DNA from: Eledone cirrhosa
Taxonomy: Eukaryota
Direction: 5' to 3'
NCBI GenBank assembly: GCA_964016885.1
Contig: OZ024740.1
Coordinates: forward strand, 267,902,001-267,966,000
Length of the DNA stretch: 64,000 bases
Below are positions 10,206 through 64,000 of this stretch, in pieces. Made by a program: the position numbers and the translations under genes. Numbering within the stretch: the first letter of the stretch is position 1; each line of letters opens with the position of its first letter. The notes under the pieces were generated by a model. It was not told the origin of the DNA. It searched no databases and was given only the letters and a program-made list of their open reading frames with translations.

Positions 10206-13200
10206 CCTAAAAGAAACATTTGTAGAGGATGTGGGGAATTCCTGCGTGAAACCAATCAACCGCGTCCTCTACAAAGGCCTCCCCACCACAGACAGCCCCA
10301 CCCAAGTCATCCCCATCCCACCAGACAACCCCCTCCCCACCAAACACCTCCGTCCCCACCCCGCCAGAAACCACCACCCCATCAAACATACCCTCCAACA
10401 CCCCCATGGTAATTGTGCAGCCTGGTCCCCAGGAGACGAAGAGCCCGATACCCGGGACGCAGAGAGGTAAGTGCCTTTTCTCTTCACCACCAACATGGCT
10501 ATGCTAAGAGTAGGGTGTCTAAATGCGCGTGGCCTGGGCTCAACTTGGAAGCAAGCAATGCTGCTAAATGACCTCAGGTCACAACGTATAGATGTGATGG
10601 TTATTTGCGAGGCCCGGATCAGCAACGTGCGACAGCTGGCCCCCTCCTTTGATGACTTTGAGATGCACGCATCTCTCTGTCAGCCCGGAGGTGGGGTTGG
10701 GGTTGTCGTTCTGCTGCAAAAACATCTGGGTCTCGCAACACAGACGGTACATTTGGACCCGGAGGGTCGACTAGTGGTTCTGGACCTTGGCAGTGGTGAA
10801 GGCGGAGCGTTTAGGTTGGTAGCCGTCTACAGCCCTTTCGGGTCAATGCGGCCGGACTTCTTCCATCGACTGGAGACTTTTCTCGGGACGTCCCGCTCCT
10901 TGCTATTAGTGGAGGACTGGAATGGTATCCTAGATGCACGTTGGGACTACGTAGGGGCTTGCCCCGATAGAGAGGGGTGTAATAGCCTCAAAGGGTTAAT
11001 CGGTCGATTTGACCTGGCCGATAGATATCGACTAGATTTTCCGACTGCGCCAACCTGGACTTGGGCAAACCGCAGCAGATCATCTAGGTCGTACCTAGAT
11101 AGGTTCTTAGTTAGAAATAAGGATAAGGACTTTTTAAGTTGTCCAAAAATGCGCATGGTTGGCTATTCAGACCACAGGTTAGTGACCTGCATGGTCAACC
11201 TTGACAGAACGCATAGACAGGGACCCGGTTACTGGAAGCTCAACTTCTCCTTACCGGCAAGTAAGATTTACAGGGACCGGATTAGCACTTTAGTTAAGGA
11301 GCGGTTGACGGGCGCAATCGTCAACAGCAGGTGGTGGGGATCTCTCAAAAGAGAGATTAGAGTAGTCTCTATAGAATTTAGTAAGGAGTTAGCCTCAAAT
11401 AGAAATAGGAAGGAAAGAGAGTTGGTAGATAGTATAGAAGAGGCAATTAGAAGCGGCGACGTGGCCAGAGTGCTAGCGTCGAAAACGGCTCTGGGCCAGT
11501 TCTTCGACGCGAAACACGAAGGCTGCATCGTCCGAAGCAAAATACGTGCTCTGGGAAACAAGGGGACCAAAGCTGTTAGCTGGGCCCGCGTGACAGAAGC
11601 CAAAAGAGGGAGTAGATCCACTATCTGGTCTTTGCGAGACCAGGATGAACGGGTGATCCTTGAACTTAAGCAGATGTGCGAGGCTATTCAAAAGCACTTT
11701 GCCAGATTGTTCGGAAGGGGCGGGGAGCCGGTTGGGGAAGTGGACTTCGGTCCATACCTCGACGGCTTGCCGCGTCTCTCGGACAGGGAGGCGAAGTCCT
11801 GCGAGGAGCCGATTTCAGCCGCTGAGATAGAGGACGTGCTGAGCCAATGCGGCAAACGCAAATCCCCGGGTCTCGATGGTCTTCCATATAACTATATCTA
11901 GCTATGCTGGACTTGTTCTCCGATCTCCTCGAGGCGGTCTACTGCAACTGGCAACAAAACGGGAGAATTCTCTGTGCTGTGACCAAGTGCGTAGTCACCC
12001 TAGTGAGGAAGGATGAGAACAAGGGGGACGATATAAATACAGAGTTACAGATTTTGGCCAAGGTGCTAGTAAAGAGGTTGGCGCTTGTCGTGGGCAACCT
12101 GGTGGGAGATGCGCAGACATGTGCTATCCCGTCCAGGTCCATCCACGACAACTGCCACCTCATGCGATACATCATAAAGAGGGTTGGGAACGAACCCGGC
12201 TTTGGTGGGGCCCTGATCAACTTGGATCAATCTAAGGCGTTCGATAGGGTCGACCATGCTTACCTGGATGCGGTTCTATCGGCAGGATTCGGACCGTTTT
12301 CAGGAGCTGGATCAATGCCATGCACAGCAGCCGCATCTGCTCTAGGGTCAAGGTGAACCGCTACCTCTCGGTGCCGTTCGAAATCGCGCGGTCCATCCGA
12401 CAAGGGTTCCCTCTCTCCTCCCTTCTGTATGTAATGACTCTAGAGCCACTGCTGCGGAAATTGGAGTTGTTGCAGGGCATCGCGTTGGAACCGGGATTGC
12501 GGAAAGCGTTGTCGGCCTACGCCGATGACGTAACAGTAATGGTGTCGACGGCCTCGGAAATCGGGGCGATCGGCACCTTACTGGAGGAGTACGAAAGGTT
12601 TACAGGGGCTAAGCTGAACCGGGACAAGTCGATCGATCTGCAACTCGGCACGTGGAGGGGCAAATCGATGCCCTCCGATGGTATCGTCGGGCGCTGGACG
12701 GAGGGCCCGGTGAAGTTGCTTGGGGTCTGGTTTGGACCAGACCTCCAGGTGGAGAAGAACTGGGGTGAGGTAACGAACAGGGTGTTTGCTCTGACCCAGA
12801 AGTGGGCCGAGTGCAAACTGTCCCTGAAAGGTCGGGCGGAGGTGGCGAACACTTATATAGCGTCCGTCATCTACTACTGCCTGACCGTTGTGCCTTGCCC
12901 AAGGGAGACGCTCGCCAAAATGGAGCGCGCACTCTTCCAATTCCTTTGGCAGAAGCGGGCTCCTATGGTGAGGAGATCCATCTTCTGACGACACCCTTCG
13001 AAAGGAGGGCTGGGGATGCCGTGGCTAATGATACGTAAACACGCATTAAGGCTACGGCAACTCCAGGTATTCCTCACCGGTCAACCGGTGTGGGCCCGTT
13101 TGTGAGGCGAGCCTTTCCCAGACTCGTCTCGCTCACCGAGCTGCAATCCCGGGTCAAGCAAAGACCGAGAAAACTGGGCGCCTGGCACACCGAGTGTGCC

Positions 13201-14172
13201 CAGGCGCTCACGGCTCTCTGGCAGGCGGACTCGGCTGTCAGTGGAGAATCCACCTCGTCATTCTATAGAGGGCTGATGGTTAGCAAGTGCGACAACGCGC
13301 TCGGAGAAGCCCTAGGCATGGAGGAAGACGAACTGGCCAACCTGATCTGTAGGACATTCAGCCCGGGACCCATGGAAAACTTCCAGAGGTCCCTCCCTGG
13401 CCTGGCAGTGCTACCGAGAGGCTCTGCCCATTCGAGAAAGGCTCTACAGACACGGGCGTCCGGGTAGGGACCCCTCGAAAAAGATCTGTCCCAGATGCGT
13501 GTGCGACGAGGAAACCGTTGCACACGCATTGGTACACTGCTCGGGCATTGCCGATCTGTGGGGCTATGTCGAACAACTGCTGTCAAGGGTGGGACCGATC
13601 CGGTTGACCACCGAGTCTATTGTAACGATCAAGCCGCCTCCCCTCTTCAAAAACGAAGGAGAGGCGGTGTTTCTGTGCGCAATAGCCATGGCGAAAGAGG
13701 TTGTATGGTGGACGCGTCTGAAAGGACTGAGGTCAGACACCTTTCTCTCTGGCCAACAACTGGTCCGTTTCTTCCGATATCATTTCGGAAGAAGGATCAG
13801 GATGGAGAGAGAGGTGCTGCACCCCAGCCGTTTTTATGAAAGATGGGTGAAAGTGGCGAGAATGGCCCGTGTGAATGGGCCTTCACTCTACATCAGACTG
13901 TAGGTGAGAAAGATGAAAGATCATGGGAGCACCCTCTCTCTGTGCTCCTGAGGAGAAGGGTTGCACACTTTTTTCGGGTGTGTGTGTGACCCCACAAGGC
14001 GCCTCCTCCCTATTTTGGATTTTGTTTTTCAATTTATTTTTGTTATATTTTATATTTTATATTTTTATATTTTGTTATTGCCTCCTCCTTAGTGAGGACG
14101 CCTTTTTATGTAAACTCCCCCATTGTACTTGTCACACTCTTTGATGCCCTGGTGGCAAATAAAAAGAAAGTT
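10206..14172 (+). mobile_element. Tx1/L1-clade LINE, 5'-truncated within ORF1, ORF2 disrupted
   Basis: ORF1 tail to 10470. ORF2 from ATG ~10495 with APE motifs (LNARGL, E, DWN, YLDRF, SDH, GYWKLN), RT motifs (KSPGLDG, LDQSKAFDRVDH, RQGFPLS, YADD) and a C-terminal CPRC..ETVAHALVHC knuckle. 3' UTR with AATAAA. Confidence 0.93.
10495..13903 (+). pseudogene. LINE ORF2 (AP endonuclease-RT-zinc knuckle) with several frameshifts and stops
   Basis: Split among track ORFs 10471-11901, 11904-12356, 12320-12988, 13090-13467 and 13499-13903. Confidence 0.9.
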
Positions 14173-40593: not shown

Positions 40594-41529
40594 CTATCCG
40601 TTAGGGTATAACGTGGGGCTGTAATACAGGAAAGTTTTGTGCAATTTATGTTTACAAGCCGAAATTGCCTCAGATTTTTTGTTTAAGATGTTGTCTGTGG
40701 CGTAGAGTATTTCCAGGGCCTCAGCGGCGCAGAGGTCACATGGTCTTTTATTACCGTTATACGATCTAGCCCTCGCTAGGATCTCCCAGTGTAACTTATA
40801 TTGGGTGTGGTTGTCTTTTAGACTCCAGATAAAAGCTGAAAGTGACGTCATATTCCTTCTTAGAGGGTAACGAAAAGAATGGGTATGCATGTAAAGACGC
40901 TGCTTGAATCTATTGGCGGTTAACCCTATGTAGGCCCTACGGGACGTGGGTGTTATAACCTTACATTTGTAGACAATGTTACTAGAAAGGCATTTACCGG
41001 ATAGGGGGCATTCAACCCGATTCCTACAATTACAGTTAGTACTAACTACAGGGTTGCACGTGTTCCTACGGCTAGGTAGTTTAGCTAAATTTGAAGCTGT
41101 GATGTTATGTGCAAGGTTAGGAGTCGTAGAGTAAGAAATTTTAATAGTATTTCTATTAAAAATTTTACTATATTTATGTGTAGGGGGAAAATGCTTCGTA
41201 ATAAGGGAAAGAAAGATCTTAGCTAATGGTGTGGCCACCTCCATATTATATGGTGGGTTATACCAACAAATGCGATGGGATCTATTTCTTCTAGGTCTAT
41301 TTTCGTACTCTGTATATGCTACCTTATCGACAAGTCCACTTCGAGCAAGAGCTTCATTGTAATAAGTGGAATCGTCGTTGAAAATACGCTGGTTGGTGGA
41401 AAGACGGGAAAGCCTCAACGAAACGTTTTTTACCAGGTTCTTGGTTATGCTGGCAGGATGGTTGGAATGCTTACTCATGTAATTAAGCGTATCATTCGGC
41501 TTTCTATACGGGTAATACAACCCATTCAA
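40594..41529 (-). CDS. PLE RT thumb + GIY-YIG endonuclease fragment (Hydra-like CNC..CPL.GKCL linker)
   Basis: YRKPND..NYMSKHSNHP, WYNPPY, KIFNRNTIKISYS, CNCRNRVECPLSGKCL, VYKCKV..AYIGLT..FKQRLYMH, CDLC..E, LNKKSE..CKH. Confidence 0.9.
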   Translation of the reverse strand: MNGLYYPYRKPNDTLNYMSKHSNHPASITKNLVKNVSLRLSRLSTNQRIFNDDSTYYNEALARSGLVDKVAYTEYENRPRRNRSHRICWYNPPYNMEVATPLAKIFLSLITKHFPPTHKYSKIFNRNTIKISYSTTPNLAHNITASNLAKLPSRRNTCNPVVSTNCNCRNRVECPLSGKCLSSNIVYKCKVITPTSRRAYIGLTANRFKQRLYMHTHSFRYPLRRNMTSLSAFIWSLKDNHTQYKLHWEILARARSYNGNKRPCDLCAAEALEILYATDNILNKKSEAISACKHKLHKTFLYYSPTLYPNG

Positions 41530-41702
41530 TAGGTTGAGGGTAACGTCGAGGTAATTAACGACCGAGAGATTGGCCTCAACCTGTATTTTTTCCCGTTCTT
41601 AGCCAGCGAACGTTTCCACGAACCAAAGTATCGTCTTCCTGTCTTCCTCCGGTTGCAACGTTTTTGAAATATCCAGTTCTGCGTTTACAGATTGACTTTG
41701 TT

Positions 41703-51712: not shown

Positions 51713-51776
<64 letters not shown>

Positions 51777-52023
51777 AAATGAAAATCCGAAGGCAAGGTA
51801 ACATTTCCAATCATTTTAATCACGACACATGTTTCAATAAGAGATAGATCGATCGTGAAGCCATGATCAATTATCACTGATCTCATCAGGTGAAAATGAA
51901 TTGTCTTCAAATTCTTGATATGAGGGAGAAAATTAGCAATGTTCACTCGCAGAGTTTATTCCCTCAGCGAGTGAACATTGCTAATTTTCTCCCTCATATC
52001 AAGAATTTGAAGACAATTCATTT

Positions 52024-52097
52024 TCACCTGATGAGGTCAGTGATAATTGATCATGGCTTCACGATCGATCTATCTCTTACTGAAACATGTGTCGTGA
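52024..52097 (+). ncRNA. Type I hammerhead with extended stem II
   Basis: UCAC-CUGAUGA-(47 nt, partly self-complementary)-GAAA-CAUGUG-UC-GUGA. Copies at 51820-51893(-) and 44538-44611(-). Confidence 0.72.
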
Positions 52098-52555
52098 TTA
52101 AAATGATTGGAAATTTTACCTTGCCTTCGGATTTTCATTTTGATACTAATACTCCGTTTTACACCATCTGGCTGTTCCCTTGAATGGAATTGGAGATATA
52201 CTAAATCGTGGAGAACTTAATATTGCTAACAAAGATTTATTGGACCATTTTGCACAACCAATAATACACCTTACTATATAACAACCATATAAATATATAT
52301 ATGTAGGAAAAGAATGACTTCACTTGTAGTTCTAAACAATTTGATTTAATTTTATATTATGATTTGGTAGATCAAGATCTACCTTTTTTTTAAATATACC
52401 TAACGGTGCCAAGGATCTCACATATTTTCCAGTATATATATATATATTGTATTTTGTCTGATGAAGGCATACCATATTTTTAATATGATATCCCTGAAAT
52501 ATATATAATGAAATAAATATGGTTTTATAAACATAGTTTCCATTTATTTAATATC

Positions 52556-54151: not shown

Positions 54152-55567
54152 AATTTAAAAAAATATGATCAACACTGATGTGTTTTTTTTGCAAAATGAC
54201 AATAACTTTTTAGCCAGATAGAAATACCTTAATTCAAGTACATATAGTCCGCCTGTATCGATCTAGAAAATATTAAATATTAAATCTATACTTACAGACG
54301 TAAAATGGCAACTGCCTTGTGCCTAGACAAGTTTAACTTTCAAAATTCAAACCTTTTCAGCAGATCTGTCGCAAGCCTAATACATGTGCTTTTGCACACG
54401 ACCTTCTCAGCATTCTGGCTCATATCCATGGCGCTAGAAATAACAGCCGTAAATATGGGATTATGAATTCAGCTCTACCGAAGGAGCAGATTTATTTCAA
54501 TTTAGTAGTCAAATACAATTATTAAGCTCTAAGAAAATACTTCTGAGCATTACAGTTGCCATTTTACGTCTGTAAGTATAGATTTAATATTTAATATTTT
54601 CTAGATCGATACAGGCGGACTATATGTACTTGAATTAAGGTATTTCTATCTGGCTAAAAATTATTGTCATTTTGCAAAAAAAACACATTAGTGTTGATCA
54701 TATTTTTTTAAATTGTACTGTAATGCTCAGAAGTATTTTCTTAGAGCTTAATAATTGTATTTGACTACTATATATATATATACATACCTTCACATATATA
54801 TGCTGTTTTCAGAAATGATGAGATTTGTTTATTGAAAAAAACCAACAAAGATTTAATATAATAGGTCTTGCAATCATAGAATTAGAAGAACCTTCAAATA
54901 TCTTACACTTATATTTTACATATTATTGTAATTAGTTTTTTTAATTTAGTTAACCTATAATTAGTACTTTACTACAGAGAACTTCATAATTTTATTTCCC
55001 TCTTACAGCTCTCTTTTCCTAAAATTAATACCTAAAAGTATACATATAAATTAATTTAATTTCCTGCTATGAATCTAGATTCCTTGTAGTTTATATAAGA
55101 TTGGTATTTCTCACTACTACCCTTATCCCAAAATTTTATTTTCCTTCGTTTTTAACAACATTCTTTAATAATATCTAATTATTATTTATCACATCCATAC
55201 GAAGTAATATAAATTTATCCCAATAAGTATACCTATCAATTAATTTAATTTCTTGTTATAGATCTAGATTCCTTGTGGTTTAAATAAGATTGGTATTTCT
55301 CACTTACCCTAAAATTTTACTTTCCTTCGTTTTTAACACTATTCTATAATAACATCACATTTTCGTATACCCTTAACCGGCTTGACCTCTTTTCATCTCC
55401 AAAGTATTCTTTCATTTAAAGTATTCTTTCCGTTCAAAACATTTCTACTACTACTATTCTATCAACTTGACCTCTTACTACTTTTCTATTGGTCAATTCA
55501 AAACCTGTTCCCAAACAGACCTATTATATTAAATCTTTGTTGTTTTTTTTCAATAAACAAATCTCAT

Positions 55568-55688
55568 CATTTCTGAAGACAGCATATATATGTGAAGGTA
55601 TGTATATTTCCTCTGATAGTTTGTAATATTTTTACATGGATCTATATACATACCAACACATATATATCCTAGAAACGATCGTAAAATG
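55568..55688 (+). ncRNA. Type I hammerhead with ~92-nt stem II
   Basis: CAUUU-CUGAAGA-[AUAUAUAUGUG/CACAUAUAUAU and GGUAUGUAUA/UAUACAUACC helices]-GAAA-CGAUCG-UA-AAAUG. Confidence 0.8.
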
Positions 55689-55875
55689 CTGAATTTTTTA
55701 TATAAGGAACTTGTTCTTTGTTTTTATTCATTGTTTTTATTAATTTAGCTTGTCTCTGTTTTCCTATGATTTTCATCGAAAATTTTTGAATACATCTTTT
55801 CTTTTCATGATATTTGAATTACATTGAGTTCTTCATACGGATTGGACACTACCGTATATTTTGGTAGATTTATCT

Positions 55876-55956
<81 letters not shown>

Positions 55957-56175
55957 TATGCAGGAAGTTATAGTTCACTTAAAGCATTGTGTAATGAGGT
56001 ATAAACGTTTGTATATGTATAATAAAGCCAAAACAATGCAGGTATGGAATGCAAATGCAAAAGATATTGTTGACAATTAGTCTTTTACCTTAGATTTATT
56101 TAAATGTCCTTAATTTTCGAGATAATATCTCTTCTTCGGAGGGAAGTAAAGCGGTTAAACCAGTGTTCTAAATAG

Positions 56176-56316
<141 letters not shown>

Positions 56317-56472
56317 CGTGTGTGTGTATCCCGAGTTCAATCGGGGGTAACCACAGTAAGTAAGGTACTCAATACATAGCACAGTATAATATTTAATATA
56401 GAAATGGTTTCTACAGGACTAGAACTGTTTTATTCGAAGGATATCATCAGGAAAGCCCTGTTACACACACAG

Positions 56473-56520
<48 letters not shown>

Positions 56521-56651
56521 GTGAGTTTTTTTTTACAAAATGAAAAATAACCGAGGTGTCCTACACGAGTGGAAGTATAAAGAAAAAGGGATGAAATCGA
56601 AAATGCAACTGAAGTCTTATTATTTTAAAATATATATATATTTATTTGGTT

Positions 56652-56689
56652 CCTTTACCGGTTTCGCAGTTCTTCTGCTTTTCAAAAGG
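56652..56689 (-). ncRNA. Second copy of the U3-A8 minimal hammerhead in the inverted pLTR
   Basis: Exact reverse complement of 62015-62052. Confidence 0.8.
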
Positions 56690-57200
56690 TGAGTTGAGAT
56701 GGAGGGTCTGTGGTTTTTCTCACATCTGGTTGGTCTCTAAATGTTACTTGTTTTATATGGAAAAAGTGGCTCGAAAACCAGGTTTTTCGAGAAGTAATTT
56801 GATTGGTTTGTCAATAATTATAATAAATTTCGCGCCAGTTCGCGTTACAATAGTTCTTCAAATAAGAGAGGGGGGGGTTGTCACAGGTTGTTTTTTCATA
56901 TATGAGTGTTTGAATTTCTTTTTACTTGAAAAAATGAGGCTCACGAAGGCTTTTTTTTGGTTGGTTATAAATGAAATTTGGCTGTCACGTGAACAAGTTT
57001 TCATTACATTTTTGCGCCCTTATTTGGAAAACTATTCTGTAGTCTTTATAGTGAATGTTATGACAATGGAGAGATAGTGGTCAAGGGAAAAGGGATTGGG
57101 AGAAATGTTCTGGTTCAGTGAATATGTCCAGCTGTCAGAGTTCAGGTGTCAGAGTTCAGATTTTCTATTAAGACTGAAGATATGTGTTTATTTGTGTGCT

Positions 57201-57233
<33 letters not shown>

Positions 57234-57723
57234 ATGTGTGTATTGGAAGATGATTCTATTAGTAGAGATGGAGGAGGGAGTTGTGTGTGTGTGTATATGG
57301 GTGTTATGTGTGTGTGTGCGAGTATGTTAGATAGAGAGAATATATATTTTGTGTGTGTGTATATATATATGTGTGTAGGAAAGTGGTTCTATTAGTAGAA
57401 ATGGGGAGGGTGTTGTAGGTGTGGGGGTTGTTATGTGTGTGTATGGGTGTTATGTGTGTGGGAGTATGGTTAGCATGTTAAGATGAAGAGAATATATATA
57501 TATATATATATTGTGTGTGTGTGTATGTGTGTGTGTAGGAAAATGATTCCTTTAGTAGGAATATTTTTGAATGAACATATTTTCCTGACTTTTTCGTGTT
57601 TGCTGTTGTATTGCCAGTGCAAACGTATTTTTAAGGTTTATTTAGTTCGGGTTTTTATTTTCTAAAGTAGAAGGTGTTATGTGTGTGTGTGTATGTCATA
57701 TTGTGGTGTTGACATAATGTATA

Positions 57724-58405
57724 TTAAACCTTATTTAATGTTGGTCTATATTTTTGAATAAACATATTTTCCTTATTTATTCGCATTTGTTCTGTTGTAT
57801 TGTTAGCGCAAAGGTAAAATGGGAAGACTTGGAATTTGGGTGTCTTATTACTTGCGCAAATGTCTAGATATGCACTTAGTGGTATCTGTCTCGTGGTTGG
57901 ATCTCGTAATTGTTGGCGATGAACTGTCATTCTGTTTCTGAGTGTGAGTTTAGTTTGTCCTATATAATCTTCATTGCATCCTTTACATTTAATGGCATAA
58001 ATTAGATTTTTTGATGAGCAAGTGAAGTGATTTTTTACAGTAAAATTTTGTCCTGATTTAAATGTATACGTGTTGCCTTCAATGAGGTGAGTGCAGGTTC
58101 CACAATTAGAGCGACCACATTTTTTGATACTTGGTTGTGGGTTTGTGGTAGGTAATTTGGCATTGGTGAGTAATGTTTTCAGTGATTTTGGTTGTCTTTT
58201 GCTTTTGATTATTTTGTGTGTTTCAAGGGCTTTTTTCATTCTTGGGTTTTGTTTTAGTAGTGGGATGTTATTGTGAATAGTGTTGTAAGCTTCCGCATTT
58301 CTTGGGTTGTGTGATGAGATATATGATAGAATATTGGACGTACCTTGAATTTGTTTCTGTTTCCGTAATTCATCAATGCCTATTGCTTTAGCCCTTTCTA
58401 TTCCA
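57724..58405 (-). pseudogene. Inverted duplicate of the PLE C-terminal/GIY-YIG coding region
   Basis: Minus-strand 171-aa ORF (57724-58239) is identical to the C-terminus of the 756-aa ORF. Confidence 0.92.
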
Positions 58406-58425
58406 TTATTTATTAGTAATAGTAG

Positions 58426-58734
58426 GACCTGATCCGCAGATCACAACCCACACAAAACCTATTCCAAAACCGTAGACCCCTGCCCACACAGAGCCTGTTC
58501 CAAAACCATAGATCCCAACCCACACAAAGGAACCAAATCTACAACCCGGACTATCAACAAACCGAACCTCAATACGTCCGAAACTTCTATACAAGACCAC
58601 ACAACAACAGGGGAAATACCATTAGATATAATAATACCAATGAAAAAACATTCCAGAAAAATCATTTTTTAGACCAAGGCTACAGGACTCACGACACCCG
58701 GTGGCACAAACCGATTTTGAAAAACCGAAAATAA
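58426..58734 (+). CDS. C-terminal remnant of a putative PLE upstream ORF (Q/N/P/R-rich, ends ..FQKNHFLDQGYRTHDTRWHKPILKNRK*)
   Basis: Stop-free from the truncation junction to TAA 58732-58734. Overlaps the RT frame and contains TTTTTTA at 58665-58671. Confidence 0.6.
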   Translation, partial: DLIRRSQPTQNLFQNRRPLPTQSLFQNHRSQPTQRNQIYNPDYQQTEPQYVRNFYTRPHNNRGNTIRYNNTNEKTFQKNHFLDQGYRTHDTRWHKPILKNRK

Positions 58735-60971
58735 TTAACATTTCAAATACAAACCTCTCAGCCCAACAAGTAAAAATTCTCTCCAAAGGTCTGAAATTCA
58801 CACCAACACCACAATATCCTAACCCCAACGAGATAAATGACGATATCTCACACTTCTGTAGAAAATTACGTCTCACAGAGGAATTCTTTGACAAGGAGAA
58901 TAACGACGAATCAATTGTACGGAATAAAAGCAGCTACAACCCAACAAAAGGTAGAAACAGAGTTCTGGACAAATTTTGTGACCACATAGCTACCTTCCCA
59001 TACCATGAACTACCGCAACCTAAACCCAAACCCAACACAAGTCGAAGGGAATGGGAGATTATCCATGAACTAAAAAACAATCCGGACATTGTAATTAAGG
59101 AAGCGAACAAGGGAAGTACTGTTGTCATTATGGAGGCTGAAAAATATAAAAATTCTATGTTCTCTCTCTTACAAAATGGTAATTACTATGAAAGAGTAAA
59201 AAACTACCAGCAATCAAAAATAATGACCAAATTAAACACACTGATTTATCGATACCAGGAAGACCTAACTAAAAAGGAACGCGATTATTTAACAAATTTT
59301 GAAAACAAAACCAGCAACCTTTACGGACTTCCGAAGATCCACAAATGTAAAATAATCAACGATGCCTGTAAACAATCCACCTCAGCCTGCGTGAACACAC
59401 AATACCCCACAGACCTTAAATTAAGACCAATTGTAGCGGGCCCACAATGTGAAACACACAGATTGAGCAACTTTATAGACATACTACTGAAACCAATACT
59501 GAAACACATACCAAGCCTTGTAAGAGACGATCTGGACCTCTTAAACCACCTCCCCAAACATGTCAACAACGACACTATTATTGTGTCTTTCGATGTAGTG
59601 AATCTCTACACAACGATCCCACACCAATACGGACTAGAAGCAATAGGATTCTGGCTAGAGAAATATCCCAATGAGATACCTGACAGAATAGAAAAAAGCT
59701 TCATCACCGAGGGATTAAAATTCATCCTACAGAACAACTTTTTTGATTTCGATGGCAATACTTACAAGCAAATATCGGGGACTGCGATGGGCACAAAAGC
59801 CGCTCCAACTTATGCCAACTTAGTCATGGCATACTTAGAAGTCCAGATATATGAACAGTCCAAATCAAAATACGGATTGAACTTCCACAAATATTTATCA
59901 GAGAATTGGAAACGCTACTTGGATGATTGCCTCATTCTTTGGTCCCACACACTCGACCAACTGAATGATTTCAAAAACTTAATAAACGGCATCAATAACC
60001 ACATCCAATTCACAATGGAATACAGCCAAGATCAACTCCCATTTCTGGACATCTTAATCACAAAAAAAGACACAAATATCGAAACTGACATACACTACAA
60101 ACCAACAGATTCCAAACAATATCTGCTATTCACCTCCAACCATCCAAAGCACACGAAGACGAACATTCCTTTTAACCTAGCGAGAAGAATTTGCACAATT
60201 GTCTCCAATTATGAAACGCGAAATAAAAGACTTCAAGAATTAAAGGAAATTCTACTTGAGAGAGAGTACCCACTATTACTAATAAATAATGGAATAGCAA
60301 GGGCTAAAGCAATAGGCATTGATGAATTACGGAAACAGAAACAAATTCAAGGTACGTCCAATATTCTATCATATATCTCAACACACAACCCAAGAAATGC
60401 GGAAGCTTACAACACTATTCACAATAACATCCCACTACTAAAACAAAACCTAAGAATGAAAAAAGCCCTTGAAACACACAAAATAATCAAAAGCAAAAGA
60501 CAACCAAAATCACTGAAAACATTACTCACCAATGCCAAATTACCTACCACAAACCCACAACCAAGTATCAAAAAATGTGGTCGCTCTAATTGTGGAACCT
60601 GCACTCACCTCATTGAAGGCAACACGTATACATTTAAATCAGGACAAAATTTTACTGTAAAAAATCACTTCACTTGCTCATCAAAAAATCTAATTTATGC
60701 CATTAAATGTAAAGGATGCAATGAAGATTATATAGGACAAACTAAACTCACACTCAGAAACAGAATGACAGTTCATCGCCAACAATTACGAGATCCAACC
60801 ACGAGACAGATACCACTAAGTGCATATCTAGACATTTGCGCAAGTAATAAGACACCCAAATTCCAAGTCTTCCCATTTTACCTTTGCGCTAACAATACAA
60901 CAGAACAAATGCGAATAAATAAGGAAAATATGTTTATTCAAAAATATAGACCAACATTAAATAAGGTTTAA
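58644..60971 (+). CDS. Penelope-like element reverse transcriptase + C-terminal GIY-YIG endonuclease (Neptune-like)
   Basis: Uninterrupted 756-aa ORF (track start is GTG 58701; frame open from 58644). PLE motifs: IINIS..LSKGLKFTPTP, EANKGSTVVIM, LYGLPKIHK, LRPIVAG, SFDVVNLYTTIP, QISGTAMGTKAAPTYANLVM, RYLDDCL, LPFLDILI, HYKPTD..YL.FTSNHP. Then a CGRSNCGTC Zn motif and NLIYAIKCKGCNEDYIGQT..R...H (GIY-YIG). Confidence 0.96.
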   Translation, partial: KNIPEKSFFRPRLQDSRHPVAQTDFEKPKIINISNTNLSAQQVKILSKGLKFTPTPQYPNPNEINDDISHFCRKLRLTEEFFDKENNDESIVRNKSSYNPTKGRNRVLDKFCDHIATFPYHELPQPKPKPNTSRREWEIIHELKNNPDIVIKEANKGSTVVIMEAEKYKNSMFSLLQNGNYYERVKNYQQSKIMTKLNTLIYRYQEDLTKKERDYLTNFENKTSNLYGLPKIHKCKIINDACKQSTSACVNTQYPTDLKLRPIVAGPQCETHRLSNFIDILLKPILKHIPSLVRDDLDLLNHLPKHVNNDTIIVSFDVVNLYTTIPHQYGLEAIGFWLEKYPNEIPDRIEKSFITEGLKFILQNNFFDFDGNTYKQISGTAMGTKAAPTYANLVMAYLEVQIYEQSKSKYGLNFHKYLSENWKRYLDDCLILWSHTLDQLNDFKNLINGINNHIQFTMEYSQDQLPFLDILITKKDTNIETDIHYKPTDSKQYLLFTSNHPKHTKTNIPFNLARRICTIVSNYETRNKRLQELKEILLEREYPLLLINNGIARAKAIGIDELRKQKQIQGTSNILSYISTHNPRNAEAYNTIHNNIPLLKQNLRMKKALETHKIIKSKRQPKSLKTLLTNAKLPTTNPQPSIKKCGRSNCGTCTHLIEGNTYTFKSGQNFTVKNHFTCSSKNLIYAIKCKGCNEDYIGQTKLTLRNRMTVHRQQLRDPTTRQIPLSAYLDICASNKTPKFQVFPFYLCANNTTEQMRINKENMFIQKYRPTLNKV

Positions 60972-61461
60972 TATACATTATGTCAACACCACAATATGAC
61001 ATACACACACACACATAACACCTTCTACTTTAGAAAATAAAAACCCGAACTAAATAAACCTTAAAAATACGTTTGCACTGGCAATACAACAGCAAACACG
61101 AAAAAGTCAGGAAAATATGTTCATTCAAAAATATTCCTACTAAAGGAATCATTTTCCTACACACACACATACACACACACACAATATATATATATATATA
61201 TATTCTCTTCATCTTAACATGCTAACCATACTCCCACACACATAACACCCATACACACACATAACAACCCCCACACCTACAACACCCTCCCCATTTCTAC
61301 TAATAGAACCACTTTCCTACACACATATATATATACACACACACAAAATATATATTCTCTCTATCTAACATACTCGCACACACACACATAACACCCATAT
61401 ACACACACACACAACTCCCTCCTCCATCTCTACTAATAGAATCATCTTCCAATACACACAT

Positions 61462-61498
<37 letters not shown>

Positions 61499-62014
61499 AG
61501 CACACAAATAAACACATATCTTCAGTCTCAATAGAAAATCTGAACTCTGACACCTGAACTCTGACAGCTGGCCATATTCACTGAACCAGAACATTTCTCC
61601 CAATCCCTTTTCCCTTGACCACTATCTCTCCATTGTCATAACATTCACTATAAAGACTACAGAATAGTTTTCCAAATAAGGGCGCAAAAATGTAATGAAA
61701 ACTTGTTCACGTGACAGCCAAATTTCATTTATAACCAACCAAAAAAAAGCCTTCGTGAGCCTCATTTTTTCAAGTAAAAAGAAATTCAAACACTCATATA
61801 TGAAAAAACAACCTGTGACAACCCCCCCCCCCCCTCTCTTATTTGAAGAACTATTGTAACGCGAACTGGCGCGAAATTTATTATAATTATTGACAAACCA
61901 ATCAAATTACTTCTCGAAAAACCTGGTTTTCGAGCCACTTTTTCCATATAAAACAAGTAACATTTAGAGACCAACCAGATGTGAGAAAAACCACAGACCC
62001 TCCATCTCAACTCA

Positions 62015-62052
62015 CCTTTTGAAAAGCAGAAGAACTGCGAAACCGGTAAAGG
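62015..62052 (+). ncRNA. Minimal type I hammerhead ribozyme, U3-A8 core variant, in the PLE 3' pLTR
   Basis: CCUU-UUGAAAA-GCAG aagaa CUGC-GAAA-CCGG-UA-AAGG: 4-bp stem I, 4-bp stem II, palindromic ACCGGU stem III. Confidence 0.8.
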
Positions 62053-62121
62053 AACCAAATAAATATATATATTTTTTAAAATAATAAGACTTCAGTTGCA
62101 TTTTCGATTTCATCCCTTTTT

Positions 62122-62170
<49 letters not shown>

Positions 62171-62351
62171 TATGTATACCTACATACATATATGTATACA
62201 GACGTACACCAATATGTATATATATACATATATGCACACATATATACATGTACGTATGGATTTACCGAGTAACAGCCGTACTAAGAGTGAGAAATGAAAT
62301 TTCGTTTCATTTTTTCCATTTATATATATATACATACATATGTGTGTGTGC

Positions 62352-62395
<44 letters not shown>

Positions 62396-62559
62396 AGGGA
62401 GACACAAAGCAGGCTTTGTTTACAAACGGCTAGCGAATTTGAAAATTAGTTAGTAACATGTGTTTACGCCGTATTTGACTAAATATAATTCGTCTGTTAG
62501 TTGGGATTTAAAAAAAAAAAACCCTGAATATAAAAAAGGATGAGTATTGAAGTAGATTT

Positions 62560-62787
62560 GACACGAACCCAGAGACACCAAACATTTGAGACTGGTGAGC
62601 ACTGTAATTCATGGCCGTGTGCCAAGCAGCAGGGAAAGAGAGCAGCGAAGAAGGGGTTGGATGAGCGACATTTACGCATTAACCGACAGGAATCCCTGTG
62701 AGTTGATTAGAATAGTGGACAAGATTGCTTGGAGGAAATTGCGGCAGGCATCCGCGGACACTTGGGGTCTATGATGATGATGATGAT
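62560..62787 (+). mobile_element. RTE-like LINE 3' end with (GAT)n tail
   Basis: LVSTVIHGRVPSSR..RRRGWMSDI..DKIAWRKL then TGATGATGATGAT. Confidence 0.65.
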
Positions 62788-63193
62788 ATCCAAATATTTG
62801 TATCGAATGTCTAATTTTGTGAGACTTGAAATGATATATTGAACACAATGAGGTTCATCAGATTGGGACACTTACCCCAGTTTGACTGGTATTAAGTGGC
62901 AGAGAGTACTAGGCAACCCCTAGACATGACGCCAGTCTATCGCATTGTTAATCTCTTTTTTATCCTGTTATTCATTTTCATCTAATTTGACTAGTGTATC
63001 GTCAAATGAAGTATTTTCATGCTACCCGATCCAGGAATTAAACTTACGACATGGCATACGTAAGCCGAACGTCTTAACTACTAGGCCACGCACATATTTC
63101 GAGTAAGCGGGGTGTCAGGGGAAAACTTACATCTAACCGAGTCAACGCCATAGATTTTAGTACGGTGGTCGATTCTTAATCTTTTTCTGTTAA

Positions 63194-63272
<79 letters not shown>

Positions 63273-64000
63273 CTTTCTGGAAGAAATCTTTGTTCAGACC
63301 TGGTGAGGCATAGGCTTCGGCAGATTTTAAATGCCCGTGACACGACGTGTGCTAGGAAGGTGCCTCTACGAGTACATACGGAATTAAAGGCCATTTCCTT
63401 CTCTTTTTTTCTTTTGGAAATTCTATTAGTGAAATTTGGCTACATGTATTCTGTACAAAAGTCAGTGAGGCAGTCTCTGCTAGCAGGTTGTAATCTGTTA
63501 TCCCGTTTACTCATCCAAAGCCGTACATAGCGCCGGTATTACCAATAAGCTAACTAGGCAGACACTTAGGGTACATGCTTCAGAGAGATGAATTACTGAA
63601 TCTTTAAAGTTTATACAAATTCATATAATTAATTTAAATGTAAAATAATTTCCTGCCATAACGTAATTAATCACTAAGCATCATTGCTACGATAGAGCGT
63701 TGTGGAAATATCCCAAACAGCGGAAAGAGTCGTCTGGTTGTAGGACATGTAGCATGATTTTCCGTGGGTTAATGTGAACTGTGTAGTAGAAAATGCAGGC
63801 TTGATAATTTTCTTAGTATATTCCGAGCAAAATGTATAAAAAATTAGGTGTATTTATAGCGATGAGTTTTGATGATCATGTTGGTAGTTGATGGTGTTGT
63901 GGTGTTGATTCGTTTGTTGCGTGTGTGCTCACTTGTAGCTTCCTGTGTCGTGTGGTCAGTGTTTTGTGATATTGTGACCAGATGTGTGCAGGTAAGTGAG

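Follow-up and report, generated by a model that had tools for sequence, protein, structure and literature searches.

A minimal type I hammerhead motif with a U3-A8 core in a Penelope-like element of Eledone cirrhosa

A 38-base motif in the window, the 64,000-nt stretch of Eledone cirrhosa DNA analyzed here, has the sequence and layout of a minimal type I hammerhead, and it is located on the sense strand of the 3′ pseudo-LTR of a Penelope-like element that encodes a reverse transcriptase and a GIY-YIG endonuclease. An identical motif occurs on the opposite strand of the same insertion (Table 1). The reading favored here, at a probability of about 0.6, is a minimal Penelope hammerhead in which cleavage after position 62048 would be slow and would require a dimer paired through the palindromic helix III, possibly with the assistance of a protein. 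This reading is preferred because published members of the class are inactive as monomers and weak as dimers (PMC4209133; review PMC6765202), and because the hammerhead of an anole Penelope-like element needs a protein. The copy in the window would likely cut only weakly.

Table 1. Coordinates of the hammerhead motif and its host element in the window (positions are those of the window)
Feature	Position	Strand	Remarks
Minimal type I hammerhead	62015-62052	+	U3-A8 core; 9 and 10.1 adjoin without a bulge; helix III with a palindromic insert of 4 nt; triplet G16.2-U16.1-A17
Helix I, 5′ strand	62015-62018	+	
Helix I, 3′ strand	62049-62052	+	
Core positions 3-9	62019-62025	+	U3 = 62019, A8 = 62024
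Helix II	62026-62029/62035-62038	+	5-nt loop; G10.1-C11.1 = 62026/62038
G12 to A15.1	62039-62042	+	G12 = 62039; A15.1-U16.1 = 62042/62047
Six-base self-complementary stretch (15.1 to 16.1)	62042-62047	+	Predicted intermolecular helix III
Predicted scissile bond, 3′ of A17 (62048)	62048/62049	+	Placed by hammerhead numbering; GUA is a natural cleavage triplet
Identical motif in inverted arm	56652-56689	-	Opposite strand, points away from the ORF; reverse complement 38/38
775-codon open frame	58644-60971	+	Reverse transcriptase, C-x4-C-x2-C linker, GIY-YIG endonuclease; Neptune/Nematis-type layout
Right arm	60269-62128	+	3′ part of ORF, microsatellite-rich 3′ region, pseudo-LTR with hammerhead
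Inverted, 5′-truncated copy of right arm	56576-58426	-	Abuts 5′ end of element; 99.1% identical
Extra "tail", about 60 nt, left arm only	56515-56575	-	Family sequence, covered by contigs of runs X2, X10 and X11
(AT)n tract, left end	56487-56514		Likely insertion target
(TA)n tract, right end	62125-62168		Likely insertion target

Every segment of the motif is found where the first-pass annotation had placed it. The core GAAA, the UH and a Watson-Crick pair between positions 3 and 8 (U3-A8) are all present, and helices I and II comprise 4 bp each and both occur within the minimum-energy fold, with the ends of helix I open. There is no extra base between positions 9 and 10.1, a base that is usual, not universal, in the class. 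Chance resemblance, by which the stretch would simply be ordinary pseudo-LTR sequence, is extremely improbable. A descriptor that specified the U3-A8 core, a helix I of at least 3 bp, a helix II of at least 4 bp, a palindrome of 2–6 nt and H17, composed after the motif was known and modelled on a published one, matched twice in the window and in none of 200 dinucleotide shuffles of it. The nearest relatives carry hammerheads in the same place, strand and layout, and one published element has the same core heptamer. What speaks for chance is that the folding energy of the motif is not unusual relative to shuffles (z −0.94), and that the Rfam covariance models, run on positions 55500–64000, returned no hammerhead family among 43 matches with E up to 10; the matches were microsatellite-driven miRNA and snoRNA families, below their cut-offs. 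The latter result is in line with the earlier expectation that a CUGANGA-based search would miss this motif.

The host element is recognizable by its open frame, in which the GIY-YIG domain scores 27.2 bits (over the Pfam cut-off of 22.6) and the reverse transcriptase, RVT_1, scores 28.5 (just under the cut-off of 29.6). Homologues number 2,187 at an E value of 1e-20 or better, and the closest named one is a protein of Octopus bimaculoides with 74% identity. The order of reverse transcriptase, CX2-5CxxC linker and C-terminal GIY-YIG is shared with the EN+ Penelope-like elements, and so is the anatomy of the insertion, since an inverted truncated 5′ copy, a one-sided tail and a microsatellite target are described for such elements (10.1101/2021.04.23.441226). 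The right arm ends 76 nt beyond the motif, in agreement with the distance of about 75 nt first noted, and with the core and helices in place this pseudo-LTR location upholds the assignment to the minimal type I hammerheads of Penelope-like elements. The two arms differ by 7 substitutions and 2 indels over about 1,860 nt. Hence the two hammerhead copies are parts of one young insertion on opposite strands; they are not independent evidence, and their identity is not conservation, because the arms of that insertion in which they lie are 99.1% identical.

The element had been called intact, which is accurate for the 775-codon frame, as it is open, but not for what lies upstream of it. A direct upstream pseudo-LTR, which would hold the promoter, is absent, as only the inverted arm lies there, and the ORF start lacks an in-frame ATG, with none in 58427–58780. 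Lacking a direct pseudo-LTR and an ATG, the window copy probably could not serve as an expressible master copy, and it would provide no dimer in cis. The missing upstream pseudo-LTR bears on the competence of this copy, not on its family membership. A frameshift near 58730 was considered and ruled out, since the N-terminal stretch conserved among the closest homologues is read in the long frame. Near the start of that frame, at 58660–58672, a T-run is followed by AG, which may be a splice acceptor through which an upstream exon could provide the missing start.

Several other features of the window were recorded. Five further hammerhead-like cores, all of the C3-G8 kind, are present at 2900 (+), 45410 (-), 41918 (+), 52458 (+) and 56450 (-). 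Those at 2900 and 45410 have the usual bulge, a two-base palindrome and a weak helix I, while the other three look decayed or doubtful; all five are probably stubs of other Penelope families. A 334-codon frame at 40594–41598 (-) resembles the C-terminal region of another Penelope-like element, distinct from the first; it had no match in Pfam, nor any to the first element by tblastn. A frameshifted non-LTR retrotransposon, with an endonuclease/exonuclease/phosphatase domain followed by a reverse transcriptase, occupies 10471–13903 (+). A near-perfect palindrome at 51772–52145, with 183-nt arms that are 98% complementary and an 8-nt spacer, adjoins an (AT)n tract, and smaller inverted pairs occur at 54184–54683 and 54778–55607. 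The stretch 52283–52326 matches the 3′ flank weakly and was set aside; no hammerhead precedes it.

The proposed mechanism centers on helix III. A single copy would be unable to close this helix, as its loop would be 0–2 nt. Two copies, supplied either by a transcript of tandem elements or by two RNAs, would form an intermolecular helix III of 4–6 bp and so complete both active sites. The first-pass suggestion of a palindromic stem III used in dimers is supported by the self-complementarity of 62042–62047, with a helix III that can form only between two copies. Predicted energies for the palindrome duplex are −8.3 kcal/mol for 6 bp and −4.9 for the inner 4 bp, and a nested two-copy structure is predicted at −18.9 kcal/mol versus −12.8 for two monomers. 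In the window insertion the second copy is on the opposite strand, so that a partner would be available only in trans. As with the anole Poseidon element, the protein encoded by the element itself may have to act as a chaperone, and cleavage would trim precursor transcripts near the end of the element. Dimer cleavage was reportedly observed by Lünse et al. (as cited in review PMC6765202).

An efficient monomeric ribozyme, stabilized by tertiary contacts with its flanks, is very unlikely. Helices I and II do form in the predicted monomer, with probabilities of about 0.7 and 0.83, and GUA is a natural triplet. Against this, the helix III loop would have at most 2 nt, the probability of helix I is 0.3 with 20-nt flanks and 0.07 with 55-nt flanks, and a monomeric minimal hammerhead of Schistosoma mansoni showed no cleavage in the assay described (PMC4209133). 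Slow, dimer-dependent cleavage, the preferred reading, would face a further obstacle in the window copy. Its most stable predicted monomer fold pairs U3 with A17, thereby extending helix I (−6.4 versus −4.7 kcal/mol); the probability of this pair is 0.56, with helix I at 0.70 in the same prediction. The U3-A17 pair is predicted to cover the cleavage site and would further slow cleavage. It is the counterpart of a C3-G17 pair that has been proposed to trap minimal hammerheads (PMC3884650, PMC1636495). Among the related motifs described below, A17 occurs in 0 of 10 with a U-A pair at 3-8 and in 1 of 18 with C-G, a difference that is not significant, A17 being rare anyway.

The swap to U3-A8 is stated to be active in vitro (PMC3088659), while in one type III hammerhead only a G-C swap rescued activity and U-A did not, single changes being weak (PMC9901934). 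Several natural U3-A8 hammerheads were described by Perreault et al. in 2011; these have the same compensatory pair as the window motif and are apparently not minimal, dimer-type Penelope motifs (PMC3088659). The first-pass annotation had implied that such a core is rare, which does not hold: Cervera and De la Peña published it in 2014 for the Cercyon Penelope-like elements of S. mansoni, with its own descriptor and about 1,300 matches (PMC4209133). The U3-A8 core of Penelope hammerheads was thus already known, and the window motif is a further example of it.

The closest published likeness is to these Cercyon hammerheads (Sm3/Sm4 rows, Fig. S3 of PMC4209133), which share with the window motif the type I topology, the pseudo-LTR location, a short helix I and the U3-A8 pair. 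The element-associated S. mansoni(4) row in the supplement of that paper has the same core heptamer. The window motif differs from the Cercyon rows in that it lacks the bulge between 9 and 10.1 and has a 4-bp rather than a 6-bp helix II, a 4-nt rather than a 2-nt palindromic insert, and A17 instead of U17. The Penelope hammerheads of Drosophila, mosquito, shrimp and Saccoglossus likewise have a small palindromic helix III suited to dimers, and in two of these rows, Marsupenaeus and Saccoglossus(2), the bulge is also missing and position 17 is A (PMC4209133). Unlike the window motif, however, the rows from these animals are C3-G8, so that A17 cannot pair with position 3. Another comparison is provided by the PAc hammerhead of the anole Poseidon element, which was cleaved only with the element's protein and needed the 3-8 pair; insertion of this element in vitro did not depend on cleavage, and RNA-seq ends at the cut site were absent from the data described (Frangieh et al. 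2024, PMC11167929). It resembles the window motif as a pseudo-LTR hammerhead near a two-ended "tail". In contrast, PAc has a C3-G8 core that overlaps the start codon and its cleavage has been assayed, whereas the window motif is known from sequence, lies 1,048 nt past the ORF stop and has no ATG in or after it.

The identity of U3-A8 as a true covariant of C3-G8, as first proposed, can be judged from related elements. A descriptor that left positions 3 and 8 free was used to scan 92 loci with related reverse transcriptases (75 from metagenomes and 17 from a genome collection), and it gave 45 matches in 31 loci, 44 of them on the ORF strand, as against a shuffled background of 0.15 matches per set. 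All 29 distinct hammerheads keep a 3-8 pair (18 C-G, 10 U-A, 1 U-G and 0 mismatches; Fisher p 5e-7, in counts that are not independent, since the rows are related and one assembly accounts for 8 of the 10 U-A motifs). The covariation is therefore real, and holds across families. The remaining 61 loci had no match to this descriptor, including the closest full-length ones (L001–L003), and many of the loci end near the ORF.

In a reverse transcriptase tree of 34 rows, the window element falls in a six-row clade with a support of 100/99, and the hammerheads of this clade also lack the bulge between 9 and 10.1. Two loci (L012, L066) had been dropped from the tree as too short and L081 was left out, L055 may represent a neighboring element, and the tree holds no named Neptune or Nematis reference, assignment to that type being by ORF layout. 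Within the clade the 3-8 pair is U-A (window, L005, L079), C-G (L006, L076) or U-G (L004), where the motifs of L004 and L076 come from a looser scan and have only one or two direct helix I pairs. As C-G, U-A and U-G are mixed within the clade, the pair has switched more than once. When seven motifs of the clade were aligned by sequence only, the helices did not come into register, and that alignment was set aside. As separate observations, related Penelope families in a single metagenome assembly (L050–L073) carry C-G, U-G and U-A at 3-8, with the wobble U-G intermediate in L061, L068 and L069, and animal-type Penelope elements, several with hammerheads, are found in bacterial genome bins (L076–L092), where they likely represent host contamination.

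Copies of the window family itself were compared over positions 56517–56880 of the left arm in contigs of 4 sequencing runs (X2, X7, X10 and X11), chosen from 23, none of which is recorded as RNA, a record that does not bear on expression. Run X2 contributed 6,960 placed contigs and run X10, from a related organism, here organism G, 285; contig depth is not equivalent to copy number. In X2, 23 places vary at 3% of depth or more over the 364 nt, one of them in the motif, at the outer base of helix I; there is no variation at this level anywhere in 62016–62052. At 54% of depth the outer pair of helix I is disrupted, by a change linked to a neighboring one that would create a U-A pair one position beyond. 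Compared with its flanks, the motif shows no significant excess of conservation in X2 (p 0.28 for 38 nt; p 0.08 for the inner 37 nt), and no compensatory stem change was seen in that run, covariation being confined to comparisons across families.

Depth in X2 is mostly 0.9–1.5 million over 56543–56711 versus 0.03–0.32 million beyond 56725, and at 56725 and 56576 loose contig ends continue into (AT)n; in the tail region as well, loose ends of family contigs run into (TA)n at 56576. The end segment of about 200 nt (56543–56724) thus likely exists as a short, non-autonomous, hammerhead-carrying derivative. Many short solo-motif copies have been described by Cervera and De la Peña (PMC4209133), and the depth of the end segment in X2 likewise fits many short copies.

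The run from organism G presents a different picture. Position 3 of the inverted motif (56685) is C in 21,300 of 21,569 depth (99%, 16 contigs) in X10, whereas position 8 shows no recorded change, even though three of the contigs cover the motif from end to end. The core of this apparently abundant family thus reads as a C3-A8 mismatch, which none of the 29 related motifs has, a hint that spread of the family is possible with a crippled ribozyme. It is possible, if doubtful, that the window motif too is a crippled descendant of a working hammerhead, with the U3-A17 trap in the window and the C3-A8 mismatch in a sister family; the motif would then be kept as part of an end segment of about 200 nt that the protein needs, or its palindrome would serve to pair RNAs, and cutting would not be the reason for its retention. 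Single changes at the 3-8 pair give low or no activity in the hammerheads described in PMC11167929 and PMC9901934, and the C3 form is predicted to lose helix II in its monomer fold to an alternative hairpin of −8.2 kcal/mol. The preference of the predicted window fold for the U3-A17 register, a conservation no better than that of the flanks and the dominance of short end-segment copies in X2 depth point the same way, as does the fact that Naiad elements reach high numbers without hammerheads (10.1101/2021.04.23.441226). On the other side, core and helix II positions other than 3 are unchanged in X2 and X10, and U3 is kept in three of the four runs, although in X7 and X11 by one contig each, and the X11 contig has lost G12. 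Depth is not copy number, and a few master copies may have spread the X10 form regardless of selection. A C-A wobble might, moreover, retain some activity. Slow cleavage as a dimer remains the favored reading of the window motif.

Searches of open-licence literature returned no report of a U3-A17 trap, of the U3/A8/A17 combination, of a natural C3-A8 hammerhead or of an amplified C3-A8 family. What is proposed here about the U3/A8/A17 combination and the amplified C3-A8 family draws on folding predictions and on the contigs of one run. A broader proposal, tentative and rather unlikely, is that nature has run an experiment in this cephalopod Penelope family, one showing hammerhead cleavage to be unneeded for spread: the lineage of the window copy would be self-blocked by its U3-A17 pair, a sister lineage would have multiplied with C3-A8, and the rest of the fold would be fixed as a signal for pairing or protein binding.

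The window motif adds a cephalopod example to a published class of hammerheads, and it illustrates that searches for such motifs must allow U3-A8. A C3-A8 family in organism G that proved genuine, abundant and unable to cleave would count as evidence from nature that amplification can do without the catalytic step, and the two sister families, U3-A8 and C3-A8, offer a ready-made test of this.
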